64,000 nucleotides of DNA from Dipteris shenzhenensis (lineage: Eukaryota), in the NCBI GenBank assembly GCA_047967505.1, contig CM106538.1; one strand, given 5' to 3'. Below the pieces are notes generated by a model. The model saw only the letters and a list, made by a program, of their open reading frames with translations. It had not been told where the DNA came from and did no database searches. The position numbers and the translations under genes were made by a program. Shown here one piece after another: positions 1 to 64,000 of this stretch. Each line of letters opens with the position of its first letter. Within the stretch, counting starts at the first letter, position 1.

Positions 1-1490
1 ATCAACATCATGAAGTAGGCCTTCCCTCAAGATGATGATTCTGGGGAATCAAAGAAGGACTGAGCATTACATTCCATCACACCCCTTTAATGGGAATGTC
101 CTTCCTCTGCATCAAACCAAGAGCTAGTCAGTGTTTCTCGAATAGCTCTTTACCGAGTGGTTTGGTAAAAATGTCTGCAACATTTTCTTTGCTATCACAA
201 TGCTACAATATGATGTCACTAAGTAACACTCTTTCTCTGATGAAGTGCTCTCTGACATCAATGTGCTTTGTTCTGGGGTGATATATTGGATTTTTGGCCA
301 ATGCTTGAGCCGATTGATTATCACAGTATATTGTTGTTGGCTTTGACTCATCAAAGTAATCTGTTTTTGACAATAGTCTTCTGCGCCATATAGCCTCACA
401 TGCACCTATAGTGAGTGCCCTATATTCTGCTTCAGTTGAAGACAAAGAAATAGTTGGCTGTTTCTTTGACAACCATCATATAGCACCTTGATCAAGGTAA
501 AATGCATATCCCTATGTCGATCTCCTGGTCTCATGATCTCCGGCATAGTCACTGTCACAGTATCCATGCAACCGTGGATGACTTCCTCTATATTCTATCC
601 CAAACTATCTTGTTCCTCTAATGTATCTCAAGACTCTTTTGGCTGCATTCTAGTGAGATTGTTTTGGATTTGCCATAAACTGTGCTAGTGAGCTTACTGC
701 ATAACAAATATCTGGCCGTGTGATTGTCAGATATATAAGAGATCCGATGAATTGCCTGTAGTATCTGTCATTGACTGTAGGCTTTTCTGAATCTTTAGTA
801 AGTTTCAAACTCTGTTCCATGGGAGTGGCTGCAATCTTGCAATCTACCATATGAAACTTCTTCAGGAGACTATCAACATACTTGAGTTGACTCATGAATG
901 TGCTATCTGAATCTCTCCAGAACTCAATTCCAAGACAATAGTGCATAAGTCCAAGATCTTTCATGTCGAACTCTGTAGATAAGTCTTGTTTTAGTTTTCT
1001 GATGAAGCTATCCTTGCTTCCTGTCACAATCAGATCATCTACGTACAAAAGTGCAATATAAATGTCTTCCCCTTGAACTTTGTAGTAGAGAGTATGATCT
1101 GCATTGGACTTCATGTACCCCAGATTAGCAAAATACTTGTCAATTCTACTGTACCAACTTCTGGGTGCTTGCTTTAAGCCATAGAGACTTTTCTTGAGAT
1201 GGCAAACCTTTTTCTCCTTTCCTGGTTCAACATAACCTACGGGTTGTTGCATGTAGACTTCCTCGTCTAGATAACCATTGAGAAATCCATTCTTGACATC
1301 GAGCTGATACACATTCCATTTACTGAGTGTCGCTAGTGATATCAAGAACCGTATGGAATCCATCTTTGCTACTGGAGCATAAGTCTCATCATAGTCTTGA
1401 CCATATTGTTGTGCAAATCCTTTTGCAACTAATCTGGTTTTGTATCTCTGAATACTGCCATGTGGATTGTACTTCAGTTCGTATACCCAT
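1..1490 (-). mobile_element. Degenerate Ty1/copia retrotransposon 3' part (RT, RNase H, PPT, start of 3' LTR)
   Basis: RT motifs RLVAKGF, QLDVKNGFLNG, LYGLKQAPR, LYVDDLI in ORF 650-1564. RNase H motifs KKQPTISLSSTEAEY and IYCDNQSA...RTKHIDVREHF in 203-472, separated from RT by in-frame stops. PPT AAAGGGGG then TG at ~80-89. Cut at 1490 by a younger copia. Confidence 0.93.
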
Positions 1491-1844
1491 TGTGAAGATA
1501 GTGGGAGAGAGGGAAGGAGTCTCACTTGCGGCTTTCTCACAATCACAAATGGGGGAATACACACAAAGGTGGAGGCTGAAAATAGTTTTCCTCTTCTTAG
1601 TTGTGATAGCCAAAAGAACTCAAGTAAAAAGAAATAGAAGAACCCTATATGTGGGTCTCAAAACTAAACTCAACTAACTAAGGTGGCATACTAACTGAGC
1701 CACGAACTAGTGTAGATAAGGATAGCTGTCATCCAGCTATTATTCGTGGGCGGTGTACCAACCGCATCTCCAGCTAACAAGTCGGTGACATAAGTATACA
1801 ACGGTCACCCTGGCATATCTCGAGTGGAGCTCGATATCTCAACA
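1491..1844 (-). repeat. 3' LTR (~354 bp) of the younger copia
   Basis: Starts TGTTG right after the PPT and ends TCACA at 1491, exactly where the older element's RT codons (WVY) resume. Confidence 0.85.
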
Positions 1845-4800
1845 CTCCCCCTCGAGCTCAATCCCAGATCTTGCACACCAAGCAGGTCTCTGAACTTGTG
1901 CAGTTTCTCTGCGCCCAATGCTTTCGTGAATATGTCAGCTACCTGATCCTCTATGCTGACATAAACTAGATCAATAAGACCTAGTAAAACCTTCTCCCGC
2001 ACATAGTGATAATGCACCTCAATGTGCTTTGTTCTGGCATGAAAGACTGGGTTCTTTGCCAAATGTATACTACTCATGTTGTCACAATAAATGACAACCG
2101 GCCCATCTGTAGACTGATGCATATCATAGAGTAGCTTATGCAACCAAGCTACCTCACATGCAGCCATTGCTGCACCCCTATACTCAGCCTCTGTGCTCGA
2201 CAAGGCGACTGTAGGCTGTTTCTTGCTGCTCCAAGTGACTGCAACACTCCCAAAAGAGAACACATATCCACTGGTAGATCGTCTATCTGAAATGCTACCA
2301 GCCCAATCAGCATCAGTGTATCCATGCAACTGTATCTGAACCCCAGCCTCATAAAATAGTCCATACTGCAATGTGGACTTCACATACGTGAGTATGCGTC
2401 TAGCCGCATCCAAATGCGGTTTCCTTGGAGCTTGCATAAACTGACTTACCAACCCAACAGCATAGCTCAAATCTGGCCTAGTAATAGTCATGTAAATCAA
2501 ACTTCCTACTATGCGTCTGTACATAGTAGGGTCTTCCAGAAGCTCACCTGCATCTGTGCTCAGCTTCACATTCTGCTCCAAAGGAACTGAAATAGGCTTA
2601 CAACCTGTCATCCCATATTTGGACAGCATGTCCAATCCATACTGCCTCTGCAAGAGCTGTATCCCACTTGGTGATCTAATCACCTCAATGCCCAAGAAAT
2701 AACGCAGCTCTCCCAAATCCTTCATCTCAAACTTCTGCCTCAATAGCATTTTCACATGAAGGATATCTTCATCACTATCACCTGTGATGATCAAATCATC
2801 AACATAAATGACCAGCAACATAATCCCTTTCTCTGTTTTTCTCACATAGAGTGAGAAATCTGCCTTGGAAATCTGAAAGCCAATAGTGACAAGATACTGT
2901 CCTATCTTGTCAGACCATGCTCTAGGTGCTTGCTTCAAGCCATACAAGGCTTTCTTCAACCTGCAAACAAACTCAGGATGAGTAGCATGAACATAACCTG
3001 CTGGCTGCTCCATAAAGACCTCTTCTTGCAAATCACCATGCAAGAAGGCATTCTTTACATCCATCTGATGTAAAGACCATCCCTTTGATGCAGCCATAGC
3101 AATGGCTGCTCTTACGGTTGCCATCCTTGCAACCGGGCTGAAAGTTTCTTCATAATCAATGCCATATGTCTGTGCATACCCCTTGACAACTAATCTTGCC
3201 TTGTATCTATTCACAGAACCATCTGCATTGTGCTTGATCTTATAAACCCACTTACAACCAATTGCATTCTTGCCTTTAGGCAAAGGCACCAATTCCCATG
3301 TAGCATTAGCATCCAAGGCATCCATTTCTTCATCCATGGCTTTCTCCCATTTTTCATTTCCCATGGCTTGCTCAAAAGAAGTGGGTTCTGGTTCCTGTAT
3401 CACTTTGACCATATAGGCATAGTGAATGGCTGTAAATCCATCATATTTCAGCCTATCCATAGGATACCTAACCCTGGTAGACCTGCGCAAAATAGGCTCA
3501 CTTCCAAGTGCTCTCAAAACATCCCTGGTCTTCCTTACTCCAGGTGTAACAACAGAAGGAATACCCAACTCATCATCAATGCTCTGTTCTGAGCCACTGG
3601 ATTCACCATCCACACAAGAGTGACCTGCATTCACATCATACATGGGCTGATCTACCTTCTCTTTCCCTTTTTGTGATACCTGCGTACCACTCTCTGCATT
3701 GCTTTGAGGGGATTTTCCTGATCTCAATCTGCCTGTCCATGGCGAAGTATGTGAACCACTGGTAGAGGACACTCCAGGTCCACTGATATTTTGTGATTGC
3801 TGCTGTGCATTTTGTGCAGCATTACCATTTTGTGCATCTACATCAATCATCACATTTACTGGTTTATACCAGCTGCTCATCTCATCAAAAACATCTCTGC
3901 TCACTGTGAACTTACGTGTAGAAGGGTTATAGCATCTATACCCTTTCTGCTGCAGAGAATAATCAATAAAGACGCACTTCTCAGCTTTTGGATCCAACTT
4001 GGACCTCAGCTCATCTGGCACATGGACATAGGCAATGCAACCAAAAATCTTCAAATGAGAAATATCTGGTTTCCTACCAGTATACATCTCCTCTGGCGTC
4101 ATACCATGTATTGCTGCAGTGGGAGTCCTGTTCATTATATAGACTGCTGTAGCAACTGCTTCAGCCCAGTAATAATCTGGTAGATCTTTTTCATTTAGCA
4201 TAGCCCGAGATACCTCTCCAATATGCCTGTTTTTTCTTTCTGCAATTCCATTTTGCTGTGGGGTATGACTGCATGAATATTGCTGCTTTATACCATGCTC
4301 CTACAAGAACCTTGCAAACTCATTTGAGAGGTACTCTCCCCCTCCATCTGACCTTAGGCATTTTATTTGCAGGCCTGTTTCTTTTTCAACCATAGCTTTG
4401 AAAGCTTTGAAGTGCCCAAACACTTCACTTTTCTTTTTCATAAAATACACCCACAGTTTTCTGCTGAAGTCATCAATAAATGTGACAAAATAGTGACAGC
4501 CTCCAATAGATGCAGCTTTTGTAGTCCACACATCAGAGTGGATTAATTCCAATGACTTTTTACTCTCTTGAACATGCCTAGGAAAAGGTTTCCTTGCCTG
4601 TTTCCCAAATTGACAGGCTTCACAAATCTTGTGCATTTCTGCAACCTTGAATTTTGGCAATCCTGCAACAATATTTTGGGCTTGCATTGATTTAAGTCGC
4701 TGTATATTAACATGACCAATGCGTTTGTGCCAGATATCAATATCTGCAACTACACCGGTCCCATGTGCAAACATTGCTACACTCAATTCAGGCATGTCTG

Positions 4801-4921
4801 CATCCAACGTAACCATCCTGCCCTTCTTCTTTCCTTTTGCTATCAAGCGACCATTATTTTTCATATCCTCAACAAAGCATCCATGAGGATTAAATCTGAC
4901 CTGCAAGCCCTGCTCAACCAT
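1805..4921 (-). pseudogene. Copia pol (integrase-RT-RNase H) with one premature stop at 4301-4303
   Basis: Frame continues FL*EHGIKQQYSCSHTPQQNGIAERKNR into MLNEKDLP. YVDDL and YTDADWAG motifs are intact. Confidence 0.92.
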
Positions 4922-4949
4922 CTGACCAACAGAAACCAGGTTCTTGAAG

Positions 4950-6050
4950 ACTTTCGATGCACCTCTTTTAAGTTTTAGGACTTATAATATATGACTCACG
5001 ACACTACTATGGACACTCTACCAGACTAATGAGTAGTAGCTTGACATGACAACTATTAACCTCATGGTCTTGGATAAAAGCAAGGAGCTCAAGGCTCTAA
5101 GCCAATTTATGAGATTGTGTCATGCCTAATTCACCACCACTACCATGCAACCACCACACCAACATCTCTCCAAATCCATGTGTATGTGTTGCCCATACTC
5201 TAGACAAATCCAACCGATCCAACTATGAGACTCCAATAGTTTGAAGAGGCAAACATTGTCCCAGCCAATAGTAAGCTGGGTATTCACCACCCTTCTACAT
5301 CTCAGTCAAACATGAGCACCCCATGAGGCATTCTCCACCCCCTAAAGCCAAGCAACAATAGCAACCCTAAAATGACTCGCAAATGCAATAAGACCCCCCA
5401 CGTGTGCAAGACGGCTGAAGAGTTGGTCCTATAAATAGTTGCAATAGATACTTGCAGGCTTGAAGTAGTATAAAATGCACACACGTCTGAAATATGTAAG
5501 GCGGCTTAACAAAGCACTCCGAGTTGCTACAACAGAGTGCAGTAGAGATATGGAGAAAGAGGTAGCTAAGCAAAAAACCAAATAGGTTTGAGAAACAGAG
5601 TGAGATGATTTGGTTGAGAGAAGGAGGTAGCATAGGTAAAATTAGGGTTAGGGCTAAAGAGGATGATGGCATGGTAGAAAGAGATTAGGGAAGGGCCATG
5701 GCAAGACTAATCTACTCTAATACCATGTTGGAAACATGGAGGTGAGATAGAGAGAGAAGGCTAGGGTGTGAGGAAGTGCTACATAAATGAAGACATAATG
5801 AAAGTCTTTCCCTATATTCATATAGTCAATGTGAAGTACACGTACAAGACTTTATAGGCTTGTTGCCACTTCCTTACATGTATGGAGAGATAGCTTGTTG
5901 CCACTTCCTTATGTGTATGGAGAGATAGTCATTTGAAAAAAATTCCAAGTCTTTTTGTCACCTACATACATATTGGGTGTCATTGTTGTGGTATATGTGT
6001 AGCTTAGGACCTCAAGTCATGGTCCAATCAGAGATGTAGGCTCAAGTGTG
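4950..6050 (-). mobile_element. Small/non-autonomous LTR element remnant: LTR (boundary at 5726) + tRNA-iMet PBS
   Basis: Minus strand reads CCAACA TGGTATTAGAG at 5714-5731. LTR sequence resembles the LTR at 47248-47542. Far boundary uncertain. Confidence 0.55.
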
Positions 6051-16524: not shown

Positions 16525-17664
16525 TTCCCACTCGTAGAACTCCTCAACGAGAGAGTCATGCATTTGTACAACCATACTAATGACTCCCATTGCGCCGCAC
16601 TCTCCTTGTGGAGGGACGCTTGATGCGGCGTCAAGCATGGCAACGGCTCTAGGTTTCGCAACGGGTCGATGAGGGTGGCGGCAAAGGTAAGGGCTCAAGG
16701 CTACAAGGGACCAAGAGAGGTCGATGAGGCTACAAGGGACGAAGAGAGGCTAATGAGGGGTCAGGATACAACCATACTAATGGCTCCATCATGTAGCACA
16801 AGCCTTGTGGAGTTCTAGAGGACATCGGTGCGTGTGGAAGAAGGAAGGGGCTCAACACTGCTAGGAAAGAAGAGAGGTTGATGAAGGGGAATCTAAGGCA
16901 CAATCATAATGCAAGCTCATGCATTGGTGTTTAAGCAACCAACCCTTTCGAACGAAGTTGTTTTCTTACATTCATGATGTTAGTAGCATGGTTGCGCTTT
17001 GCTTCTTATAGTTCCGTGTTTTCTTATAGACATGTTGTGGTCAATGCACTGGTGCATACGCGTGGCGTGGCTGCAATGGTGCTTGCGGCTACATTGGGTG
17101 GAATGCGACATATGACTGGGGACATGGGTGCATTGGTGCTTGTGGTTGTGGTGAATGTATCTTCACATATACCATGCAATATATAGCCATAGCGTATGGT
17201 GTCTAAATCACTTAGCATTGCACAAGTGTCCAAAAAGCATGCAAAAAGCCCACATGTGGTGTGCATGCACTTTGCATGCACGTGTGCAAAATATCGCATG
17301 GTGTATCGAAAAACTATGTAGTATATTTTCTTCGTACTGCATGGTGTTTAGGTTTACAGTGTGTTAATTATCCAATCAATCGGTATTCAACGATCATATG
17401 GATAAAAGGCTTTTTTTTTGCATTTTGAACATTCCCAAGCATTTTTTATATGAAAGGTACATACTATTTCAACAAAAGAACATACTATAAAAATCCTTCC
17501 TAGGGCACTATGCCTAACACATGTGAAACACATGCTTAAATTTATGATTCTCACCTAATATCTTACATAGTTAAAATATTATAACTAGAAGGAAAGAGAA
17601 AGAAGAACTGAATCAACTCTCCTAATAATCAATATAATGCTAGGGACTCGGGAGTCCCAAAAGA

Positions 17665-17988
17665 TCTATACCTCTTTTCTTGCTCTTTGTGAAGGCCCTC
17701 TTCAAACACCTCATGCATCTAGTGGGAGTATAAATTGTAGTGATAGCGCACTTCACCGCCGCCACCATCTCTAGCTTTGATAATTTCCACGGTGCACGAG
17801 GTAAAAAGACACTCCCATTTGGCCTCTCTTGTGGCCAAGCCTTACGCATCCTCCCTATGGTGCGTAGATCCTCCCTTATGCCTATGGAATCTCATGTCTC
17901 ATTCAAATGTTCCCAAATGGTAGATGCCACATTCTTGAAAATATGCATGGGATCAAGCAGGTGATTTATTTGGAGGTGGGACCAATAT
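17665..17988 (-). mobile_element. Older CACTA-family copy, left piece (transposase exon-5 homologue)
   Basis: High identity to 20210-20531. Continues seamlessly at 25461 once the inner element is removed. Confidence 0.9.
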
Positions 17989-18008
17989 CACAACAACACA
18001 AAGCAACT

Positions 18009-18276
18009 ATAGACGCGCTTGGTAGACGCGTAAAATAGCAGGCACGTCTATAGGTGTTGCTTTAGTAGAGAAATTACGGGCGCGTCTAAATGCCCGTTTA
18101 AAAGCTCGTCTGTTTGCGCGTAAATCACCGCGTCTATTTGCGCATCTGACCTGAGAAAATACGGGCCCGTCTAACATCCCGTTTATTAGCGCGTCTATTT
18201 GCGCGTGTATTTGCCCGTTTATTTGCGCGTTTACACTGAGAATCAGACACGCATTTAGACGCATAAATAGACGCGC
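18009..18276. repeat. Left subterminal array of TAGACGCG/CGCGTCTA motifs
   Basis: Many direct and inverted copies directly inside the left TIR. Confidence 0.85.
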
Positions 18277-18443
18277 TCCAGAGAATATAGAAAGTGAGAT
18301 TTTGGTGTACATCATTGCTTTCCAAACATTGCCCATGATTACCAAAGCACATAATTTTTTGCAAGCCCACATATACAAGAATTAAGTGAGATGAGGAGAA
18401 TGAGACAATCTGTAAAATAGTTTTGCCAATATCAATTGTGGGG

Positions 18444-21400
18444 CTACGGTTCAATCTCATCCTCAATGAGATCAACCCTTGCCAAACTATCTACTTCAAA
18501 ATCCAAACAAGTGTTTAGATCTACAAATACATTCAAGCCACTACTACTTGTGCCACTCATGTGCTCATCAAAATCAGCATCTCCAATGGTAGGCTCGTCC
18601 TCACGGGTAATGGCCTCAATATCTATATCTCCTATCTCATGATCATCCTCCTCTCTTGTATCACGGTCATCATCACGTCCATGGCCATGATCATCCTCCA
18701 TACGCTCCATATTAGTAAATGTACTATACATCACTTTGGAACGTGGCATAATAGGTATGACATGCCACCATCTATTATTATCCACCATTGGTTGATAGAC
18801 AACCTAATTCAAACACAAATACAATCATGTTACTTTTCTTGCATCAAATATTTAAAAGCGAGTATTTTTATGTGTGTGCACAGTACCTGTTCACATTGTT
18901 GCGGTAGTACTAGTGTGTCCTTCCTACTTTGCCAAAACTTTGTGGAGTCAATAGTTACAAAGCCACTTGCATGGCGTTTGATTGTTGCATTAGGGCCTCT
19001 TTCCACCACGTCCTTAAACCACTTTACATCCAAAACATACACAAAGAAGCGTCGAAAGTCAAGCATAATGATATCTTGGATTATGCCACAATAATCATCC
19101 ATGGCTCCATTGGCTCCCTCAAAGCTAGCAATGACGCCGCAATCTTGTGTGTTTCTCTTATCATCAATCCGTTGTGTTCGAAAATGCTTGCCCTCACACC
19201 ATATAGCATTGAACATAGTGCACTACACCAAGAAAAAATCAATTAAATAAGCAATCTAAATTATAAAAAGCTCCTAACTTATGCATAACATTCTATATAC
19301 CGACCTTGCTCATGCATCCCCTAGCATACTCCCATTCTTCCATTGTGATATGCATCCCCTCATCTTTCTCTGCTTTCTCCATTTCATCAAGTAGCCAATC
19401 CACATGAATATCCTTTGGAAGTGCTCTTAGATGCTGAGGGTATGGCACACGAGATCCGTGGTGTGTACGAAAGAGGGCCCTTTCTTCTTGTCTTCTTGCC
19501 TTTGCATCCTCGTATCTTGTCACCCATCTTTTCATCACATCACTATTAAGCACGCAAAAGAGATTGATACTATTATGCAACTCTGTGTCTATTACTTTGT
19601 TGCGTCCTTTTCCTTGAGGCACAATAGAGGTCATCCTTAGGTCTTCATCATCTCTCCATAGTCGTGGGAGAGAGCTATCCACATCAACAAGAAACTCAGA
19701 AATATATACAAGTGACTCTTGTACCAACCAACCCTCGGCCATGCTACCTTCGGGTCTTGCATTTTGTCTCACGAAGCCCTTCAAGGTCTTCATGAAGCGC
19801 TCGAGAAAGAACAACCATCGTGCATGTATAGTACCGCATATAGCAATCTCATCCACCAAATGTACTATTAGATGTAGTTGGCTTGTGAGAATAGAACGTG
19901 GAAATGTCTCCTCCACTAAACAAACCGCCTCCACTGACATAACTCGAGCATTCTCAAGCGTGGTGGGATCTATTTCCTTTGATCTCACATACCTCACAAG
20001 CTCGCCCATCTTGTAAATACAATCTTTCACGTCCTTCGATGCACTACGTGAAATGCTAGTAGGTATTATGAACTGAACCCGCGAGGAGGTGGTTGATTAG
20101 TTACTTATAGCTATTCACTCACAAATTTGAAAGGAAAAAGATATTATGCATATAAAATACTTACTTGGAGCATCTTGTGCCAATCATGAGATTTCAAGCC
20201 ATATAATTGCTCTACACCTCTTTTCTTGCTCTTTGTAAAGGCTCCCTTCAAACACCTCATGCATCCAGTGGGAATACGAATTGTAGTAATAGCGCGCTTC
20301 ACCGTCGCCATCTCTAGCTTTGATAACATCCACGGTGCATGAGGTAAAAAAACACGCCCATTTGGTCTCTCTTGAGGCCAAGTTTCACGCATCCTCCCTG
20401 TGGTACGTAGATCCTCCCTTATGCCTACCGAATCTCGTGTCCCATTCAAATGCTCCCAAATGGTAGATGCCACATTCTTGAAGATATGCATGGGATCAAG
20501 CAAGTGATTGATCTTGAGGTGGGACCAATATGGTAAACGATAAAAGATGGAGTATCTAAACAAAATAAAGTGTTAGCGTGCAATCTTTACTTTCAACCAA
20601 TATAGCCAATCTTTACTTCCAGCCAATAGTTACAAACCCTTACCGGCTCATGCCAAGTGGTGGAGGAGTCGTGGAACCGTCCCAAATTCTCATCCAATCT
20701 CCCGTGGTGAGTGATTGTGGGAGGACTTCATTCCAAGGGGCAACATATCTAGGATGATCAGGTGGGAGAAATCGATGGTGATTCTCATAGATGACCTTAT
20801 TCAATGCGCCTGCCCGTGAGGCAACTAGCGAAGGACCATAAACAGGACATGCATGGTAACCCGATGTAGTGAGACCTGAACAATAGATGCAATTAAGAGT
20901 GGAAGGTGGGTTTAGGGTGCCACGTCCTTTGCCTATTCATAATTAAAAAATGCAATGCTTACCTGAACACTCGCCATAGCCTGGGAAGTCATGCATCGTC
21001 CACATCAAGACTGCTTTGCAGTTGAAGTCTCGTGATGAGGGAGGCCTGCTCACATCATGCACCTCGATACCTCTCCAAAGTATCTCTATCTCATCAATCA
21101 AAGGCTCCAAATAAACATCAGGGTTTTTGACTTTATGTTTCCCTGGAATTAGAAGGGACAGCATGACATGTCCTTTCTTAATAGCCATAGAGGGTGGAAG
21201 ATTGTAATTCACCAATACCACTGGCCATACACTGTAAGACGTGCTTTTGAGACCAAATGGGTTCACACCGTCCATACCCAATCCAAGTCTCAAGCTCCTA
21301 GATTCTTCCTTGAAGCTTGGCCATGTGACTTCAATATGCTTCCACGCAGGAGAGTCCGCGGGAGTTCTCCACTTGCCATCGGTTGATCGATGGGAGGAAT

Positions 21401-22421
21401 GCCATGACATGAGCTCTGCAATAGATTTGCACTTGAACATATGTTGGATGCGAGGGATTATGGGAAAATGTCGCAATACCTTACGAGGCACGTCCAAGGT
21501 TTTGAGATCTGCTCTATATCTTGCCTCTCCACAAGAAGGACACTCTCTTGCATCCTTATGTAGTCCACGAAACAAAACGCAATCGTTGACACATGCATGG
21601 ATGCGCTTGTAATCTAATCCTCCAAGAGAGGTCACATGTTGCCTTGCCATATCTCTTGAGGTCGGTAATTTATTCTCCCTTGGAAGCATTTTACACAATA
21701 GCCTGCACGTGAAGACCATAAATGAGGAAAAGCATTCGAGTAATTGACCCACTAGCATAATTCACCATGTTTGCAAAATCGACTTTAAAGCTTACTTGAG
21801 TAATGCATTCAAACTTGCATTGCTCCATCCATAGATGGTTTGCAAGTTTAGTAACTCAAGGGAGGCACGTAGAACAGAGAATGTGCACCCCTCAAATAGT
21901 GGAGTCGATGCTGCGGTAAAAAGATCATCCTGCTCCATGCTATTATCCCTCCCTTGATGGACATATAAATCCCGCACCATATCATCAAACACCTCCTCCT
22001 CCACGGCTTCATGAGGTAATGGCGGAGGGCTACTATCACCATCACTCCATGCATCCGTAACGGTCCCTCCTGAAGATCCCACCTCATATCGCCGACGCTT
22101 CGCCTCCTCACGACGGGCATAGGGTAACATGTGCGGGTGTGGCACTGCATCCTGTATCAAATTAAAACGGGATCATAACTCAAACATATGAACACCCATA
22201 GGTATCTCAATCAACCTTAACTTACAAACCCTTACCCTGTTTACGGTCACATCCCATTCTCCATACTTTGAGATATGATTGAGTGTAATCTTGCGTGCAC
22301 GATACATGTTTCCTCGACATCGATCACATAGACATTTGATTTTTTGCTCCAACCACATTTCGCGATGGTGGATACGGAGGGATTCATCCTCACTGGAGCT
22401 ACTTGTTGAAGATGGAGACAT
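18444..22421 (-). CDS. En/Spm TnpD-like transposase (transposase-associated, Tnp2, DUF4218- and DUF4216-like regions), 8 coding exons, 1122 aa, frame intact
   Basis: Exons 22236-22421, 21796-22151, 20963-21702, 20644-20875, 20165-20555, 19305-20072, 18887-19222, 18444-18803. All introns GT-AG with consistent phases; total 3369 nt. Motifs CLCDRC, IHACVNDCVLF, LRLGLGMDGVNPF, YNLPP, WTMHDFPGY, LDPMHIFKNV, HLIVHL, FFLERFM, RPEGSMAEG. Confidence 0.93.
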
Positions 22422-22482
22422 CCTACAAACAAACAACCCACCAAATTTGCTCTTCTTCAAATGCTTAATTTAAACTCTGTGT

Positions 22483-22605
22483 TGCGTCTATCGCCGCATC
22501 TATAGTCGCGTCTAACATCGCGTCTAATGGCACGTCTAAACGCGTGTCTACTCTGTGTATTTAGACGCGCCTATAGACGCGCTAATAGACGCGACTATAG
22601 ACGTA
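22483..22605. repeat. Internal TAGACGCG array upstream of the transposase ATG
   Basis: CGCGTCTA copies followed by TAGACGCG copies. Confidence 0.85.
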
Positions 22606-23024
22606 GCTTTTAAACCTGCTTTTCGGTGCGCCGCTCGCTTTGCTTTTCTTTACATTACCTAAACTTCGCGAGCGGCTTCCTTCCTTCTTTATTAGCAGTT
22701 CCATAGATTCGAAGCTTAAGAGAGAGCCTCCCGTACACACTTCCAAGCTTTCACTCAAGAGAAAGGGACCGTACCTACACTTACTTCCAAGCCTAAAGGA
22801 GAGGAGGAGTACGAACAAGGAGAAGAAGCAAGTTTGGAAAAGAAAGAAGAACCTTCCATACCTTTATCCAAGTAAGTCCTTTTGAAGTTGTTCTTGTTTG
22901 GAAGTTTGCTCTTTCCAGTTTTGTACTTTCTCGCATCCAAGAAATGCAGGATCTAGGTATGAGCATCACGTTTTTGTGTCGGGCAGAACGTCCTTTTCGA
23001 CTTTTTAGAAATCTCGCCTGTCGG

Positions 23025-23303
23025 AGCGCGTCTATAGGCGCGTCTCAGAGCGCGTCTAAAAGCGCATCTACAAGCGCGTCTAACCGCACGTCTGGCTTGT
23101 TGCAGACATACACATACGCGTCTATAGACGCTCACACAGACGCCCTGTTAGATGCACTTTTAAACGCATTGTTAGATGCACTGTTAAACACACTGTTAGA
23201 CGCACTGTTAAATGCACTATTAGATGCACTATTAAACGCACTGTTAAATGCTCTGTTAGATGCGTCTATAGACGCGCAAATCAGACGGGTCTATAGACGC
23301 GCT
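23025..23303. repeat. Internal TAGACGC array including 12-bp-period TGTTAGATGCAC units upstream of gene 2
   Basis: GCGCGTCTA copies, then a run of TGTTA(G/A)A(C/T)GCAC units. Confidence 0.85.
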
Positions 23304-23382
23304 CTGACAGTAAGCCTCTTTTTTCTTCCCCTTTCTTCTCATCTCATCAGTAATAGATTTTTTTCCTTTTTTCTAGTTCAAG

Positions 23383-24839
23383 ATGTGGCCAGGAAGTGCT
23401 TCTAGCTCACCTGATCCCCGGGAATCTATTTGGAAGGACTTATATAATCTTTTAGGGCACCCTCCTAGTCCTCTGGAGTTATACGGGTATATGACGGGTA
23501 CCCTTAACACTCCCCAGGAGTCAGCACTATAGACTCCGAGCCACTCCACACCACCTGAGATCACCCCAGTGGAGTCAGCACATCCGTCTTATGCCCCTTC
23601 TTATGCCCCTTCTCCCGTACCATCTTATGCCCCTTCCCCCATGCCGTCTTATGTCCCTTCTGCCATCCCGTCTTATGCCCCTTCCCCCATGCCGTCAGGA
23701 GGTCCTTCTGTCTCGGCGAGCCGTCGACGTACTCCCCAGCCGTCGAGACTCGGTTCTCCAGCTACGAGTGGTCAGCGTAGTCCCGTGCAGTCCCCAACTA
23801 CAAGTGGCCAGCGTACGAGCTCGACACGACAGGGTAGCAGGCGTAGTAGCAAGGAGAGCGGTGGCGGATGCATGGCACAGTGCTTTGGGCCATGTGGTGG
23901 TGAGGAGGAGGATGATTCAAATGATTTAGACGTGCCTCTGGGTGATGGTACGATTTATTATGACATCACTCAGACAGGAGGCATCTTGATGGATGCGCGG
24001 GGGAAGGACATCATGGCCTTCATGCGCTCTGTAATTGCTAACAATTACAGAGATTGCTTTATCCACTATAAAGACCACCCAAAGAGGTTGGCTGATGAGA
24101 CCCTCGCTACTGTTCGCTCTAGGTATCCTAACCCCCCCAATCGCCAGTTCACAGATAAATGGGGGAAGTCAAAGATTGTTACGATACTTAGCAATAAAAG
24201 ATCTTCGCTTAAGAGGCAGGCACTAGCGGAGCTTGCCAGGCTTGAGGCAGGTCAACCACCAAGGGGCCCGCCCCACACCGCTCACAAGCGTGAGTGGAAG
24301 AAGGCAATGAAGTCAGCGAGGGAGGAGCCCAGTCTGCAGCACGTGGAGGCACGGAGGATCCAGATGGAGGAATATGGAAGCGCGCATTTTGGAGCAGGGG
24401 GTGTTGAATCATGGGAGGCCCAATTTGTAAGTATCGATCTCAAATTATATTGCTTATGTAGTTTATTAGGAGGTTGGTTGTTTCTTTGTACTAATCCCTC
24501 CACAAAGTGTGTCGCGGTCATGCAGCTTGAGATCGTGGGCAGATACCCTACTCCAGTGGAGAAAGCCTACCACCGCCACCATCGCAGAGGAGATACATGG
24601 AGGCACTTCTATGATGACGGCTTGATTACTGAGGAGCAGTATACCCGAGCTACTGGAGCGGCCCCCCAGGTATTTGAAAGTAATTAAATAATGCCAAAAT
24701 TATAAGTAAAGATTTGATTTTTCATACATTGATATATGTTGTCCCTTGTTTACAGGCCCATGCACAAGACGACGAGGAAGACGAGGAAGGAGGCGCAGAA
24801 GGGAGCGCAGAAGGGAGCGTGGAAGGCAGCAAGGATTAG
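23383..24839 (+). pseudogene. Second transposon gene (divergent TnpA/Ptta-like), 3 coding exons, one premature TAG at 23530-23532
   Basis: ATG 23383 lies just after a pyrimidine-tract AG and is in frame with ORF 23569. Introns 24427-24525 and 24670-24755 (GT-AG). PSYAPSP repeats, a helical core with HFGAGG reminiscent of the Ptta/En-Spm HxxG motif, acidic tail. Confidence 0.7.
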
Positions 24840-25196
24840 TCGTAGAAGTAGTGCTAGCTACTCTTTTTTGTACTTAAAGCCACTGGCTTGGCTTCGTGCC
24901 TCTTGTATATAGACTCCTCTTATTTTTTGTACTTGAAGCCACATGACGTGGCTTAGCTTCCTTATTTTTGTACTTGAAGCCACATGATGTGGCTTAGCTT
25001 CGTGCTATATGTATGTACAAGCACTTTTTGAGCTTTCAATTTTATTGCGTTTTGGAGTTGTAATATTTTATTTGGAATTGTAATTAAAATGCGGTTGGCT
25101 ATAAGAATTGAATTACAGAATGTGGATATGGGATTCTTGTAACTATATAGCATACACAACATACACAGTATTCTGTAAATTTTTTTTTTTTAAAAA

Positions 25197-25438
25197 GCGC
25201 GTCTATCAGTGCGTTTCAAAACGCGTTTATATTCGCGTCTATCTGTTCGACTTGCATCTATATGTGCGTCTATAAAAGCGTTTATAAGCGCGTCTATTTA
25301 TGCGTCTAACTGCGTGTCTATACACACGTAAATCTGATATATAGACGCGCAATTAGATGCGGGTCTCCAGACGCGCAAATAGACGCGCAAATAAGTTTTT
25401 TATTTAGTTCATGAAACGCGTCTGTGCGCGCATCTATG
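25197..25438. repeat. Right subterminal TAGACGCG array
   Basis: Same motif in both orientations inside the right TIR. Confidence 0.85.
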
Positions 25439-25460
25439 GGTGCTTTGTCTTGTTTTGTAT

Positions 25461-28062
25461 GGTAAACGATAAAAGATGGAGTATCTAAACAAAAGCCGGT
25501 GTTAGTGGGGCAATCTTTATTTCCATTCAATATACCACTTAATGGTTACAAACCCTTACTAGCTCATGCCAAGTGGTGGAGGAGTCGTGGATCCATCCCA
25601 AATTCTCATCCAATCTTTTGCAGCAGTGAGTGATTATGGGGGGACTTCATTCCAAGGGGCGACATATCTAGGATGATCAGGTGGGAGAAATCGATGGCGA
25701 TTCTCATAGATGACCTTATTCAATGTGTTTGCCCGTGAGGCAACTAGTGAAGGACCACAAAAAGGACATGCATGGTAACCGAATGTAGTGAGACCTGAAC
25801 AATAGACGCAATTAAGAGTTCAAGGTGGGTTTAGGATGCCACATCGATTGCTTACTCATAATTAAAAGTGCAATGCTTACCTGAACACTCGCCATATCCT
25901 GGGAAGTCATGCATCATCCACATCAAAACTGCTTTGCAATTAAAGTCTCATGACGAGGGAGGCCTACTCACATCATGCACCTCGATACCTCTCCAAAGTA
26001 TCTCTAGCTCGTCAACCAAAGGCTCCAAATAAACATCACGATTTTTGACTTTATGTTTCCCTGGAATTAGAAGGGATAACATAACATGTCCTTTTTTAAT
26101 TGCCATAGAGGGTGGAAGATTATAATTCACCAATATCACTAGCCATACACTATAAGAGGTGCTTTTGAGACCAAATGGGTTCACACCGTCCATACCCAAT
26201 CCAAGTCTCAAGCTCCTAGGTTATTCCTTGAAGCTTAGCCATGTGTCTTCAATATGCTTCCATGCAGGAGTGTCTGTGGGAGTTCTCCACTTGCCATCGG
26301 TTGATTGATGGGAGGAATGCCATGACATGAGCTCTCCAATGGATTTGCACTTGAACATATGTTGGATGTGAGGGATTATGGGAAAATGTCGTAGAACCTT
26401 AGGAGGCACATCCAAAGTTTTGAGATCTGCTCTATATCTTGCCTCTCCACAAGTAGGACACTCTCTTGCATCCTCAGTGTGGTCCACAAAATAGAACGCA
26501 ATCATTGACACATGCATGGATGCACTTGTAATCTAATCCTCCAAGAGAGGTCACATGTTGCCTTGCCATATCTCTTGAGGTCGGTAACTTATTCTCCCTT
26601 GGAAGCATTTTACACAATAGCCTACACGTGACGACCATAAATGAGAAAAAGCATTCGAGTAATTGACCCACTAACATAATTCACCATGTTTGCAAAATAG
26701 ACTTTAAAGCTTACTTGAGTAATGCATTCAAACTTGCATTGCTCCATCCATAGATGGTCTGCAAGTTTACTTAAATCAAGGGAGGCATGTAGAATGGAGA
26801 ATGTGCACTCCTCAAATAGTGGAGTCGATGCTACAGTAAAAAGATCGTCCTGCTCCATGCTATCATCCCTACCTGAGGATTGATGGACATATAAATCTTG
26901 CACCATATCATCAAACACCTCCTCCTCGATAGCCTCATGAGGTAATGGCGGAGGGCTACCATCACCATCACTCCATGCATCCCTAACGGTCCCTCCTAAA
27001 GATCCCACCTCATATCGCCGATGCTTTGCCTCCTCACGACGACAAGCATAGGGCAACATATGTGGGTGCGGCACTGCATCCTATATCAAATTAAAATGGG
27101 ATCATAACTCAAACACATGAACACCCATATGCATTCTCAATCAACCTTAACTCTTTAAAACTTACCATGTTTACGGTTGCATCCCATTCTCCATACTTTG
27201 AGATGTGATTGAGTGTAATTCTGTGTGCACGATACATGTTTCCTCGACATCCATCACACATACATTTGATTTTTTTCTCCAACCACATTTCGCGACGGTG
27301 GATATGGAGGGATTCATCCTCACTGAAGCTACTTGTTGAAGATGAAGACATCCTACATATAAACAACCCAAAAAATTTGTCCTTGGATGAGTTGTAAATG
27401 TCAAAACTCTATGGAGCATCTAAAAGCGCGTCTGTATTGTGGAGTGCATCTATAGGCGCATCTAAAATGTACTTTAGATGCATTGATAAATGCACATTTA
27501 GACATGCTTTTAGACATGCAAATAGACGTGTAGATACACACACTTTTAGACACACAGACTGCGAGCTGATTTTCAAACCTACTTTTAGTGTGCTTGCTTT
27601 TCTTCTCATACTTTTAACGTCATGCGGCTTGCTTTCCTATTAACAGACATAGCTCCGGTATCCACACTTATCTCCAAGCACCCACACTCATCTCCAAGCT
27701 TACACAATCATCCCCAAGCACACAAGAGAAGAGGGTGAACAAGGAGAAGAAGAAAGAGAAGTAGAGGGTGAACAAGGAAGAGAAGAAAGAGAAGCAACTT
27801 TGAAGAAGGACAAGAAGCTTCCATACCTCTATCCAGGTAAGTCTCTTGACAGTTGATCTTCTTTGGAAGTTGCTTTCTTTGGATTCATCCTTTGTTGTAT
27901 GCAAGTTGAACGGATGTTTTTTATACTAGTGTGGTCGGATGCATGTCCTTTTCAAGTTCTTAGAAAAAGGCATCTGTCGGAGCGCGTCTATAGATGCATC
28001 TAACAGTGCATCTATAGACGCATCCATTTGGGAAAATAGACAGTCGCGCCTATAGACATGCT
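25461..28062 (-). mobile_element. Older degenerate CACTA-family copy, right piece (transposase exons 1-4 and central region)
   Basis: Colinear with 20532-23100. Frameshifts and stops split ORFs 25948-27366. Motif arrays decayed to TAGATGCA/TAGACATG. Confidence 0.92.
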
Positions 28063-28157
28063 CCAATAGTCTTTGTTGTGTTTTCCTTCTCTTTCCCCTT
28101 TCTTTTCCTTCTCTTTTCTGTCCCCTTCCCCTTCCCCTTCCACTTCCACTTCCAAGG

Positions 28158-28545
28158 AAAGGATTGCATATTGAATGAATGATGGAAATAAGTGATTCCA
28201 TGAATGAAGAAAGGGATTGCATGAATGATGGAAAGGGATTGCATGATTGAAGAAAGGGATTGCATGAATGATGGAAAGGGAAAGCATGATTGAAGAAAGG
28301 GATTGCATTCGTGAGAAAATAAGGGATTGCGTTCTCTTTTTCTCTCCTTTCTCCTCTCTTTTCTTCTCTTTTCTCCTCTCTTTTTCTCTTATCTCCTTTC
28401 TTTTTCTCCTCTCTTTTCTCCTCTCTTTCCTTCTCTTTTCATCTCTTTTCTCATCTCTTTCCTTCTCTCTTTCCCTCCTCTCTTTTCTCCTCTTTCCTCT
28501 CTTTTTCTCTCTTTTTTTCTCCTCTCTTTTCCTCTATTTTCCTCT
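28158..28545. repeat. ~21-22 bp AAGGGATTGCATGA repeat followed by a CT-rich low-complexity tract
   Basis: Repeated GGGATTGC units at 28158-28331, then polypyrimidine 28332-28545. Confidence 0.8.
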
Positions 28546-46500: not shown

Positions 46501-49500
46501 TTGAGCACGCACACACACACATCTTGATACTCGATTCCACGTGATCAAATACCTCTAACGAGTTACAGACTATGCTTCATTGACCTTAGGCTGATGCAAG
46601 TTACCATGGCTGGCTCTATCTTCATGCATGCTTAAGCAACTGAGGACAAGCAACTCCTGAGAGGTCGCATGCCAAAGCAAATCGAGAAGAGAAAGTTTGT
46701 TTGAGCAAATGTTTGAGAGTCTGGGCTCTATATGGATAGACTACCCCCCTTTTAGTATAGCATTGAGTCCCCTTTTGTCCCGCTCACATACCCGCGCACG
46801 CGTAGAGGGAGAGGACGAGCAAGCTACGCGTACACAGTCTTGAGGGGAGGCGTCAAGTCTCAGTTTAGCTCATCTTCCTCCGTTTTTGGCTGCTTATTGC
46901 TTTTTTGGTTGATTGCTTTCAGCATCTTGCTTTTCCTGCCCGATTTTCGTTCATGCTTTTTCACTTCTCATATGTGTTTCTCGCCACTTGCCAACGTGAT
47001 TTTTTGGACCTTCTTGCCTTACAGCTTGCCGCATCCTCACAACTTGTTGCTCTAGAGGGTTGGGACTGGTGTCTCTTCTTTGCCCGACATCATCCTCGCA
47101 AAATTCCGCCTCTGCGACTTTCGCCTCCCCTCGTTGTTCCTTTCTATCAAGTTTCATCTTTCTTTCCCTAAGGTTCTTTTCCTGAGGTTCTTTTTCCCTA
47201 AGGTTCTTTTCCTGAGGTTTTCATACAAAGGTCTTTTTAGAACCTTCTGTTAGAAACATGGTGTGAGTGAGAGAAAGAGATAGGCTAGGGAGGGAAGAAA
47301 TGGTAGACAAATGTAGAATCCATGAAGACTTTCATTCATTCATCATCATCACTAAATGAGACAAAGTGAAGTACAAGCCTTATAGGCTACACACTCACAC
47401 ACTTGCACCAAATGCATAAGGTATAAGTCCCATAGTGACATGTGGCACTCACACACGACTCACAATCACTAGTACTAGATCTCCTAGTACTACACACCAA
47501 CACATCACATCAACACAGTCTTTGGCTATGATATCTCCAACACCCCCCTTTAGAGCCAAGAGTGTGAGACCCAACACGCGAGGAGTAGACCGATCCCCCC
47601 TCCACCGCAATATTGCAAAGAGCAAGTCCAACTATCCAACACCTCCCGTGTGATAGTGAGTTCATAGCATCAAACCAAAGGAAAAGACAATACATTCATT
47701 TCTGGGGGACAATCCAGGGCAAAGAACCTCTTATTGACTCCAAATACATTCAGTTTAAAGGGACAACTCAAGGCTGAGAACCTTTATTGACTCAACACAA
47801 ATAGCATAAAGGGCCTAGAAAGCCCAAGAATCCCAGCCATAATGCTCCTCGAGTGAGAGGCCGTGAACCTCAACAGTAGCTGCTTGTATTTCCTCAAGGG
47901 GCTCTTCAGGTTCAGCCTGTTCTTCAACAAGGAGATTGGCATGGTGCTTCTCTTGGTCCTCTTCCTTCTTCTTGAAACAATGAGCTTCAATATGTCCTTT
48001 CCTCTTGCAAAATCTTGGACAGCCATCTTATCTTGATCATCAGGTGGGCTTTTCAAACTTGAAAGTTTTTTATCAAGAGATTGAAACCTTGCTAGATGAT
48101 CACTCAACTCATCACTCTCTTCCATTTTCAAATCATAAAACTTGAGCTTCAAAAAGACTTTGGAGCTGGTAATTTTATTACCAAACAATGTCTCAAGGTG
48201 ATCCCAAATCTGCTTAGGTGTTGACTTGAAGTCCACATGATGGATGAGAGTCGGCCAAGCGAAGACCTCTCCACGAGCAAAGCTCTTTCATGCATATTGG
48301 GGTCATCTCAAGGGTCCGGTCCTCAAATGGTTAACCATTGTCGGGAGATTCAGCTCCTCTCTATGAAACCCGGCCTGATTGGAGACCTGTCACTTTAATG
48401 CATGCTATATAACAAAAAATGTTGGTCAATTGATTGAAAGGGGTTCTTTATGCAGGTCTACATCCGGCTCAGTATGGCTTTGTGCCACGAAGACAAATAC
48501 ATGACAACATTGCCAATGCATATAGAGGTGCCAAATATACAAATCAAGATGTGATAATTATGCAGGTTGATATTGATAAGGCTTTTGATATTGTGGAATG
48601 GGACTACATTGCTAAGGTAATGCGCAGATTGGATTTTGGTTCAAGAATGTGCAATGCTATCCTTTGCTTGTATCAAAATAGTATTTCTCGCTGCATAATT
48701 GGCGGTGATCTCTCCCGCCCTTTGATGTTGGGTAGATCAGGGAGGCAAGGATGCCCTCTCACTGCTTTACTTTATGCCATTGCTACCCATCCATTATACA
48801 TGGACAAACTTACAGCTGAGGGCAATTTGCATGGGCTTCAACTTCAGAATGGCAAACACTTTGTGGCTCAAGCATATGCAGATGACTCTTTCTTCTTCCC
48901 GCGCAACACTCAGTCAGACACACGCTTTATCATAGATACGTTAGAATTATATGGACTATGGCCAGGTCAGATTTTGGAACCGGGACAAATACTACGGCAC
49001 TTGGGATACCCGATTGGCTGGTGTATCTCTTTAAAGGAGGAAACTTCTTGGGTACTGCAACAGATTCAACATAATCTTGACTACTAGGAGCTCTCTACTT
49101 GGCCGCTACATGTGCATCATAGTGTCGTACAAGCAATCATCATAGCTTATATATAGTTTCATTTGCCTCTTATCTCATGGGATAAGAAAACCTTGGATTC
49201 TTTCATGTCACAAGCAATGGAGTAGAAAAAGAAAGCTCTTTGTTCCTGAAAGATGAACTAGTTCGTTTTCCAAAATGCATGGAGAGCTCAAGATTTTGAA
49301 CATACACTATCATTTGGTTGCTCGAAAAGCTACTTTGCTTCTTACTTTTGCAGCTCAATAGGAGCCATGGACGCAAATGCTCACTGGCATGAGCAATAAG
49401 GTTCGTACACATGCTTTTGGGAATTGGGAGACCACTTTCTAGGATTTTATTATGAGTTCTTTTCAAGGAAACATCCATGGTAGTCCCTTTTCAAGCCAAC

Positions 49501-62950: not shown

Positions 62951-64000
62951 TGACACGTCCCAGCACTCCTGAAACCTCTGATCTACAAAACAAACACACA
63001 CCACGTGAGAACTGAGCAGGCTGCTCACCACCCAACCATGACACCTACGGGATGTGATCCCGAATCAGGAGATGTCCCCTCCGAGCCACGAGCTGAGCTA
63101 CTGGCACGAACTCCCAATCAGATCCAAACCAGCCTGGTGTCCCATACCACCAGGTGGCGCTGTGAAGCCTAGGATCTGCCACTGGGCCTTGGGCTACGCT
63201 AAGATGCAGGCGCGCGTCCGCGACTCAATCCAGGAACAGACCTAGCACCTGGGAACGAAACTTGCTCCCAACTGCACACTGAGAAATGAACCCCCTGGGC
63301 CCCTTTTATAGACTCGGGCCCCGAGCGCCACAAATAGCGAAGACCTATAAATAGTTCGTACCCTTGCCACTCAACCCGAGAATCAAGCCTGCCTAGCTCT
63401 AAGCCTCCCCAGGCTACCTGAGCTAGTCTTGTGTACCCAGTACACGTCAGATACTAATCCGTGCACATGACATACTCCCCCTCCTCTAAGAACTCACTCC
63501 TGAGTTCGCTAAAAAACCCGGAAATGTTCTCTAGAGATTTTGTAATGTCTCCCATGTTGCACCCTCCTCAACACGATCCTTCCACTTGATCTTGTATTCC
63601 GTGATAGATCGATTACGAATCTGTCTGTCACGAAATTCAAGAATACACTCAGGTTCGTGTGGAATAAAAGTCAAATCTGTAACTTCTATTATCTCGTGAG
63701 GAGAAACAAGTTGATCATCCTCACCCAAAACTTCTTTCAGTCTACTGACATGAAAGACTGGATGTACTTTAACATCAGGAGGTAATTCTAGTCGATATGC
63801 AACTGGTCCAATTCTTTTAATGACCTTGAATGGGCCACAATATCTGGGGGATAATTTCGGAACCAAACCAGTACTTAAGCTCTTGGATTCCTTAGGAATT
63901 CGCAAATATACCATCGTTCCTTCAGAGAATTCTCTAGGTGAACGATGTCTATTAGCATAAAATCTGTCCCGATCTTGGGCACTTCTAATAGACTCCTTGG
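62951..64000 (-). mobile_element. Chromoviral gypsy 3' end (integrase C-terminus + chromodomain ORF ending at 63531, PPT, 3' LTR 62951-63472) in a GDAP2 intron
   Basis: [42 protein letters not shown]...YKIKWK...ATWE. PPT AGAGGAGGGGGAG next to TGTCA. Confidence 0.93.

Follow-up and report, generated by a model that had tools for sequence, protein, structure and literature searches.

A recent CACTA-type transposon with head-to-head genes, inserted into an older relative in Dipteris shenzhenensis

The 64-kb window, that is the whole stretch of DNA analysed here, contains at positions 17989-25457 a genuine CACTA-type plant transposon of 7.5 kb, recently inserted by cut-and-paste, with two genes arranged head-to-head: the minus strand encodes a transposase, and the plus strand a second gene, here termed gene B. 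The element is bounded by terminal inverted repeats (TIRs) at 17989-18018 (plus strand, first letters CACAA) and 25428-25457 (minus strand, CAAAA reading inwards), which are identical at 25 of 30 positions, and is flanked by the target-site duplication (TSD) TAT at 17986-17988, reproduced on the right side at 25458-25460. The left end reads CACAACAAC from 17989, and the right end, taken as the reverse complement from 25457 backwards, reads CAAAACAAG. A degenerate 30-mer drawn from both ends matched only the two termini in the 64 kb at up to three mismatches, with shuffled sequences (n = 100) giving an expectation of 0.

The boundaries of the element are fixed by an older, ~90% identical copy that reads straight through the insertion site. 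Comparison of the element with the rest of the window by blastn aligns positions 20211-20531 to 17665-17988 (88.9% over 324 columns), and positions 20529-22449 to 25458-27379 (90.4% over 1937 columns), with the two blocks overlapping by 3 bp. This overlap equals the TSD, matching TAT on both sides, and the host copy is therefore unbroken across the insertion, with this empty-site comparison revealing a unit mobilised as a single piece with one TSD. The 3-bp TSD within an otherwise uninterrupted older copy is that of the CACTA/EnSpm (CMC) superfamily. The ends, CACAA and CAAAA, depart from the strict plant termini 5'-CACTA/CACTG...TAGTG-3'; the available portion of PMC12730594 accepts 5'-CAC..GTG-3' with a 3-bp TSD as EnSpm, and 5'-CA..TG-3' for the wider clade, with both ends of the element conforming to the looser rule and the left end also to CAC. 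The imperfect CACAA/CAAAA repeats and exact TAT duplication described in the first-pass annotation are borne out by this comparison, whilst its emphasis on “non-CACTA ends”, although literally correct, was overstated, as CA...TG lies within the range published for the superfamily in that portion of PMC12730594.

The transposase gene (18444-22421, minus strand) is supported by Pfam matches, a splice model, and homologue alignment. It comprises eight exons (22421-22236, 22151-21796, 21702-20963, 20875-20644, 20555-20165, 20072-19305, 19222-18887, and 18803-18444, the last including the stop) separated by seven GT-AG introns of 82-93 nt, giving 3369 nt, or 1122 codons and a stop, with no internal stops. 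This splice model was derived independently, and is identical to the eight-exon gene of 1122 open codons originally proposed for the minus strand. The product is a Tnp2/TnpD-type DDE transposase, as found throughout the CACTA/EnSpm (CMC) superfamily, with Pfam matches to Transposase_21 (2e-48), DUF4218 (1.7e-25), and, weakly, Transpos_assoc, and with residues 28-1024 and 129-1034 aligning to full-length homologues (1100 aa); a profile search against the PDB gave chance-level matches only. The Asp of DGVNPF, the Asp of HDFPGYG, and the Glu of HLVDE, kept in 31, 32, and 28 of 32 long homologues respectively, are all present in the element. An MHIF motif is common to the element and the four closest homologues covering the site (P0001, P0002, P0005, and P0006), with MHIE found in 44 of the 50 homologues that cover it. 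At the second Cys of a conserved CxxC, a residue that is Cys in 114/114 homologues covering the column (a further 6 have gaps), the element encodes Tyr (TAT, 20838-20840, minus strand), where the older copy has TGT.

The start codons of the two genes are separated by 961 bp, and transcription proceeds from them in opposite directions. The coding region of gene B (23383-24839, plus strand) begins with the ATG at 23383 and consists of exons 23383-24426, 24526-24669, and 24756-24839 (including the stop), with two GT-AG introns at 24427-24525 and 24670-24755. The product carries a Pro/Ser-rich N-terminal part, then a helical domain, and ends in an acidic tail. An in-frame TAG is read at 23530-23532 (plus strand), 49 codons past the ATG. 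Further upstream, splice signals alone predict a putative non-coding first exon (22610-22872, plus strand, start not defined) and the intron that would follow it, with the donor CCAAG/GTAAGT at 22872/22873 conserved in the older copy. The first-pass annotation had proposed a CACTA-superfamily (Tnp2) element with head-to-head genes, the second of them spliced, on the plus strand and diverging from the transposase; the Pfam matches and splice models agree with it on each of these points.

On the evidence of its sequence relatives and predicted fold, gene B is a member of a real, so far unnamed family of helical proteins. Searching 1.84 billion representatives with HMMER returned 31 proteins at E ≤ 1e-3 (best 4.5e-43), of which 13 reach E ≤ 1e-10 and four E ≤ 1e-30, and two further matches, at 57% identity, represent clusters of 24 and 31 near-identical sequences. 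The full ORF, by comparison, is a query dominated by its low-complexity part, and its sole match was irrelevant. The same order recurs in longer relatives, where a Pro/Ser-rich region is followed by a basic stretch, C(C)FG, an acidic run, and finally the domain. Sixteen family proteins reach the end of exon 3, with 14 continuing V[S/C] and two (P0124 and P0141) resembling the spliced form; as V[S/C] is the continuation expected if the same GT donor were read through, the position of the intron is conserved. AlphaFold2 predicts the domain to be helical with good confidence (mean pLDDT 82.2, with 120 of 185 residues at 90 or above). Gene B has no Pfam match, and at E values up to 1 no Transposase_24 or Transposase_23 match emerged from gene B or from any of 22 scanned members of its family. 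A profile search of the PDB gave no match, and the model gave no PDB match with Foldseek at E ≤ 0.001, a best Z of 5.5 in a wide VIA-align search, which falls within the stated noise range for helical models, and no score of at least 0.9 in the ESM Atlas. Two scans of prokaryote genome contigs did not find the gene.

Exact sites of the 8-mer motif TAGACGCG are strongly concentrated in the element, which holds 22 of the 23 sites in the window, in four clusters, against an expectation of 0.19. The left subterminal array (18010-18280) carries the motif on both strands with periodicities of 12 bp and 85 bp, and a motif scan places the right subterminal array at 25198-25393; the units at both ends share a 12-bp spacing and occur on both strands, as is typical of the superfamily. 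The remaining two clusters sit between the two start codons. Central cluster 1 (22484-22603) precedes the transposase ATG by 63-182 bp and contains an inverted repeat, 42 nt long and 86% complementary, built of TAGACGCG units, and central cluster 2 (23018-23310), within the putative 5' intron of gene B, contains 28-nt inverted arms that are 89% complementary, together with a 12-bp array of ~10 decayed TAGACGCG copies.

The older copy at the insertion site is a 3-kb fragment, found by blastn on the minus strand in two pieces. The left piece (17646-17988) corresponds to most of transposase exon 5, and the right piece (25458-28110, end approximate) to transposase exons 1-4, with frameshifts and stops, and ~650 bp of the central region. 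Its alignment to the element continues through cluster 1, then the putative first exon and the GT donor of that exon, and into cluster 2, of which it retains the left arm, or half; the transposase 5' end and gene B exon 1 were therefore joined before either copy arose. The pyrimidine tract directly 5' of the gene B ATG, which is itself of low complexity, is likewise matched in the older copy (equalled by 0 of 500 shuffles). A terminus of the older copy near 28084 is not supported, with the likeness of the short stretch CTTTGTTGTGTTTT to the right tip being equalled by 57 of 500 shuffles. No trace of a second copy of the gene B coding exons, or of transposase exons 6-8, was found in the window. 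The initial proposal that this sibling keeps the central region is therefore correct for ~650 bp but does not extend to the gene B coding exons, and the further claim that the layout is a family trait is not supported as stated by a fragment that lacks those exons. The divergent layout with gene B is unusual and is seen here in a single full copy.

We favour, with moderate confidence, an interpretation in which the locus holds a structurally complete CACTA/EnSpm (Tnp2) element of a non-angiosperm plant lineage, whose insertion target was an older copy from the same family, with gene B being the element's own accessory gene in the part played by TnpA, and with this copy probably non-autonomous. 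Both promoters would lie at the centre, with both 3' ends directed toward the termini. Gene B would be the accessory gene of the family, equivalent in its part to TnpA of En/Spm whilst unrelated in sequence, with its helical domain predicted to bind the TAGACGCG units that lie in the subterminal regions and, around the promoters, in the two central clusters; a single protein could then both join the ends together and regulate the two genes. The case for such TnpA-like motif binding is circumstantial, and is drawn from the positions of the motif and the predicted helical domain. Counting against this interpretation are the single copy that carries gene B, the fragmentary older copy devoid of its coding exons, the stop codon within it, the failure of the searches to assign it a DNA-binding fold or family, and the lack of a homologue at the 80 metagenome loci described below. 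An autonomous copy would have both genes intact, invariant residues included, which does not hold here: the premature TAG in gene B and the Tyr at an otherwise invariant transposase Cys suggest that this copy is probably not autonomous, and its renewed movement would need intact relatives acting in trans. The earlier description of the element as “complete” thus stands for its structure, but not for a copy bearing two probable lesions.

Non-autonomous CACTA and Pack-type elements acquire passenger host genes, and gene B may be such a captured gene, without a role in transposition, with the head-to-head layout being an accident of capture in a sub-lineage. This we consider unlikely, though worth serious attention. 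The absence of Pfam or TnpA-like homology and the in-frame TAG in this copy are consistent with capture, as is the lack of a gene B homologue at 80 of 80 metagenome loci carrying Tnp2 relatives 38-68% identical in exon 3 (tblastn; best locus by HMM, E = 0.11), 28 of which have at least 2.8 kb of upstream DNA, the length required to reveal gene B. The conserved intron is no argument against such an origin, since genomic capture retains introns. However, gene B is entire, from putative 5' exon to stop, rather than a fragment, and all ten relatives looked up derive from short ENA or Logan contigs, with none from an annotated genome. Its closest homologues each represent many near-identical sequences (24 and 31), a pattern more in keeping with a repeated element than with a host gene, and both the placement of the element's own TAGACGCG arrays on either side of the putative first exon, and the retention of that exon and its donor in the older copy, argue against a passenger.

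An origin by fusion or nesting, in which an element with a transposase gene only was combined with a second unit and the central clusters are remnants of former ends, is improbable. As at the right end, the motifs of the central clusters lie first on the minus strand and then on the plus strand, and the homology of the older copy fades past cluster 2, beside the CTTTGTTGTGTTTT that resembles the right tip. That resemblance is, however, not significant by the shuffles described above, no TIR-like 30-mer occurs within the element at up to three mismatches, and cluster 2 has no flanking TSD. The movement of the element as a single unit with one TSD, and the match of the older copy to the low-complexity pyrimidine tract before the gene B ATG, likewise argue against two joined units. 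That the plus-strand gene consists of chance open frames in transposon DNA, as its one internal stop might suggest, is extremely improbable and already contradicted by its 31 homologues (E ≤ 1e-3, best 4.5e-43), its confident AlphaFold2 fold, and its conserved intron position.

Beyond the interpretation of gene B as the element's own accessory gene, a broader scenario can be put forward only tentatively, in which a non-angiosperm plant Tnp2 lineage, marked by Phe at the MHIE position, would have replaced TnpA with an unrelated helical protein and been rebuilt around a central two-way promoter, whose arrays of the end-binding motif would let one protein couple synapsis of the ends to control of both genes. 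CACTA elements rank with the most abundant plant DNA transposons, and their mechanism is known from a few angiosperm families. If the scenario is true, the two-protein logic of a cutter and an end-binder/regulator could be rebuilt with other parts and in another layout, and the orphan gene B protein family would gain a name and a context. Annotation tools that demand CACTA/CACTG ends would overlook the family of this element. New here are the gene B family with its shared intron position, the TAGACGCG arrays at both ends and in the two central clusters, the two lesions, and the fragmentary older copy.

A full-text literature search found no description of a plant CACTA element with divergent genes, although the layout may be catalogued in Repbase. 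The nearest Tnp2 proteins, P0001 (65%) and those of the fern Adiantum nelumboides (60-61%) and the bryophyte Riccia (51%), belong to the same transposase lineage. Two moss-like CACTA contigs, L002 and L007, show 53-55% identity in exon 3 and are likewise Tnp2 elements of non-seed-plant type with extra genes: a SET-domain ORF (Pfam, 6.2e-6), which lies upstream and shares its strand with the transposase, and an unrelated, conserved ORF on the opposite strand, which lies downstream in convergent orientation. Opposite-strand partners are therefore not unique to the element, although L002 and L007 have no gene B, and their subterminal motif is unlike TAGACGCG.

The element resembles En/Spm of maize and the EN/SPM families of Arabidopsis in its Tnp2/TnpD-type transposase, its 3-bp TSD, its TIRs of ~30 bp, the presence of a second protein, and short subterminal repeats that are both direct and inverted. 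In the accessible part of PMC13547354, two arrangements are described for Arabidopsis EN/SPM: a single gene that yields both proteins through alternative splicing (SPM3/7), as in maize En/Spm, or two genes head-to-tail in tandem (SPM2, 5, 6, and 9), and the sole canonical TnpA-like ORF found among 97 ORFs at 23 long relative loci (Pfam Transposase_24) also lies downstream of its transposase on the same strand. The contrast in gene orientation with angiosperm elements, drawn in the first-pass annotation, holds against both. Compared with the single transcript or common gene orientation of the En/Spm families described in that part of PMC13547354, the genes of the element diverge head-to-head from opposite strands; its second protein is without the Transposase_24 or Transposase_23 similarity of a TnpA-like partner, its ends are CACAA and CAAAA, and its motif arrays occupy the centre as well as the subterminal regions.

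The interval 17989–25457 is a bounded mobile element of the CACTA superfamily and a real transposon, with the imperfect terminal inverted repeats and TAT target site duplication (17986–17988 and 25458–25460, flanking both ends) proposed in the first-pass annotation borne out by the ends themselves, a 30-mer scan and an empty-site comparison. The left end reads CACAACAACACAAAGCAACTATAGACGCGC from 17989, and the right end, read backwards from 25457 as the reverse complement, CAAAACAAGACAAAGCACCCATAGATGCGC, with the two agreeing at 25 of 30 positions. A degenerate 30-mer spanning both ends, allowed up to 3 mismatches across the window, matches at the two element ends only (0 expected, 100 shuffles). 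The strongest evidence for the boundaries is the empty-site comparison within the window, with blastn placing the insertion site inside an older, ~90% identical copy of the element's own family. Element 20211–20531 aligns to window 17665–17988 (88.9%), and element 20529–22449 to window 25458–27379 (90.4%); these alignments join with a 3-bp overlap corresponding to the duplication, and the older copy therefore runs unbroken through the insertion site. Copia and Gypsy retrotransposon remains are dense around the element, with Copia-type (RVT_2, gag-pre-integrase, rve) and Gypsy-type (chromodomain integrase) remains at 650–4981, 47784–49087, and 63531–63998 showing the window to be a TE-rich region.

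The open frames of the minus strand match Pfam Transposase_21 (2e-48), DUF4218 (1.7e-25), and, weakly, Transpos_assoc. With splice sites set by GT-AG signals and fit to homologues, the transposase model comprises 8 exons separated by 7 introns (82–93 nt), its 3369 nt encoding 1122 codons plus a stop, with no internal stops, exactly the figure claimed earlier, and aligns near end-to-end with Tnp2 proteins of 1100 aa. The best database protein is 65% identical in exon 3, with the nearest named homologues found in the fern Adiantum nelumboides (60–61%), followed by a liverwort (51%) and angiosperms (≤50%), a ranking that makes a non-seed plant or another streptophyte the probable host. Transposases of the element's clade carry DPMHIFKNV, with MHIE present in 44 of 50 covering homologues; the Phe at this position (window 20480–20482, minus strand) is common to the young copy, the older copy (17646–17988), and the four closest database proteins covering the site (P0001, P0002, P0005, and P0006).

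The head-to-head arrangement of two genes, also claimed previously, is real in the young copy, with the transposase on the minus strand and gene B on the plus strand. Gene B begins with an ATG at 23383, its frame remaining open to 24426, and after a first coding intron of 99 nt (24427–24525, GT-AG) coding resumes to 24669, reaching a stop at 24839 past a second intron; a 41-bp tandem repeat (two copies, 95% match) lies 3′ of this stop at 24919–25001. The acceptor ctag/TTCAAGATG immediately 5′ of the ATG and a strong donor, CCAAG/GTAAGT, at 22872/22873, 504 bp upstream of the acceptor, suggest a putative non-coding first exon.

Gene B is real despite the lack of a match in a Pfam search. Searching 1.84 billion representatives in full with HMMER returned 31 relatives at E ≤ 1e-3 (best 4.5e-43), two further relatives at 57% identity represent clusters of 24 and 31 sequences, and those looked up came from short ENA or Logan contigs in 10 of 10 cases. 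Sixteen relatives reach the end of exon 3, with V[S/C], the expected product of a read-through GT donor, following in 14 and an exon-4-like continuation in 2; the intron position is thus conserved, and some relatives appear spliced. Gene B and the long family members have a common layout of a Pro/Ser-rich region, basic stretch, C(C)FG, acidic run, and helical domain, the last confidently predicted to be all-helical by AlphaFold2 from the family alignment (mean pLDDT 82.2, core ~96), with no fold match above noise in Foldseek (none at E ≤ 0.001) or VIA-align (best Z 5.5).

Scanning metagenome contigs by transposase alignment identified 80 loci with relatives 38–68% identical in exon 3, none of the 80 holding a gene B homologue; 28 hold at least 2.8 kb upstream, enough to reveal gene B in the same layout, and the three closest (61–68%) are too short to show gene B. 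The closest DNA-level transposase relative, L001 (a 2649-nt contig, 68% in exon 3), aligns in one piece and without introns to model residues 20–664, and derives either from a transcript or from a copy that lacks introns. Among the 27 loci that reach 7 kb, 23 supplied 97 ORFs of at least 130 aa outside the transposase for a domain scan; a canonical TnpA-like domain (Transposase_24) was present in one of these ORFs, which lies downstream of the transposase and shares its strand. Two moss-like loci, L002 and L007, have a SET-domain ORF upstream and a common opposite-strand ORF downstream. The former (L002:1411–2616, and L007; Pfam 6.2e-6) lies between a Transpos_assoc-like exon and the remaining transposase, and the latter (L002:6838–7182(−), L007:7741–7914(−)), conserved at 83% over 58 aa and without a match in a Pfam search, may be a convergent second gene. 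The ORF survey and these two loci thus indicate that accessory genes differ among Tnp2 lineages, with opposite-strand partners existing elsewhere. Most likely, though with modest confidence and on the strength of the single full copy examined, gene B is an accessory gene specific to this lineage that plays a TnpA-like part; its capture as a passenger gene is rather unlikely, and a composite origin of the element is improbable.

The 8-mer TAGACGCG occurs at 23 sites in the window, 22 of them within the element (0.19 expected), grouped into two subterminal clusters (left, 18010–18275; right, 25198–25387) and two central clusters. Cluster 1 (22484–22603), with a 42-nt inverted repeat of 86% complementarity, sits 63–182 bp 5′ of the transposase start codon and immediately ahead of the putative first exon of gene B. 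Cluster 2 (23018–23310), with 28-nt inverted arms, lies in the putative 5′ intron of gene B and holds a 12-bp tandem array of ~10 units (CTGTTAAATGCA / TAGATGCACT, 23140–23263). These units look like copies of TAGACGCG with CpGs decayed to TpG/CpA, a pattern suggesting that cytosines of the central array were once methylated.

The older copy consists of 17646–17988 and 25458 to ~28110 only, and contains frameshifts and stops. Its alignment to the young element takes in cluster 1, then the putative first exon together with the GT donor, and extends over the left arm of cluster 2; the pyrimidine tract preceding the gene B ATG is possibly matched as well. The suggestion that it keeps the central region therefore holds for these features, but not for the gene B coding exons, which have no counterpart elsewhere in the window (tblastn; sensitive blastn and tblastx); the same searches found none for transposase exons 6–8. 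The head-to-head layout is at least partly common to the older copy, and, as the alignment passes through the exon and donor, the joining of the transposase 5′ end to the putative gene B first exon predates the 10% divergence between copies. Homology to the older copy stops at 28085–28545, just past its central region, where GGAAAGGGATTGCATGA-like units form a short tandem array and a long microsatellite rich in CT is also present.

Structurally complete, the young copy is probably not self-sufficient, owing to an in-frame TAG in gene B (23530–23532, 49 codons past the ATG), within a region that codes in long relatives, and to a Cys-to-Tyr change in the transposase. The Tyr (TAT, 20840–20838) replaces the second Cys in the CxxC motif that follows the second Asp, a position that is Cys in 114 of 114 covering homologues (6 of 120 gapped) and TGT in the older copy.

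Arabidopsis EN/SPM families are described as relying either on alternative splicing of one gene, as in maize En/Spm, or on a head-to-tail gene pair (PMC13547354). For full-length plant CACTAs, the description is of a pair of ORFs flanked by CACTA and TAGTG ends (PMC4158355). The EnSpm definition admits CAC..GTG ends with 3-bp duplications, and that of the wider clade CA..TG (PMC12730594), so that the non-CACTA ends previously claimed as distinctive, whilst unusual under plant annotation rules, fall inside the superfamily range. No description of a plant element with such a divergent layout was found in the literature covered, Repbase and two key papers lying outside that coverage. What really distinguishes this element from plant CACTAs is a divergent layout in which the second gene is unrelated and motif arrays also occupy the centre. 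In En/Spm, the promoter lies at the element end and is overlapped by TnpA sites, whereas the promoters here must be internal, with TAGACGCG arrays occurring there too.
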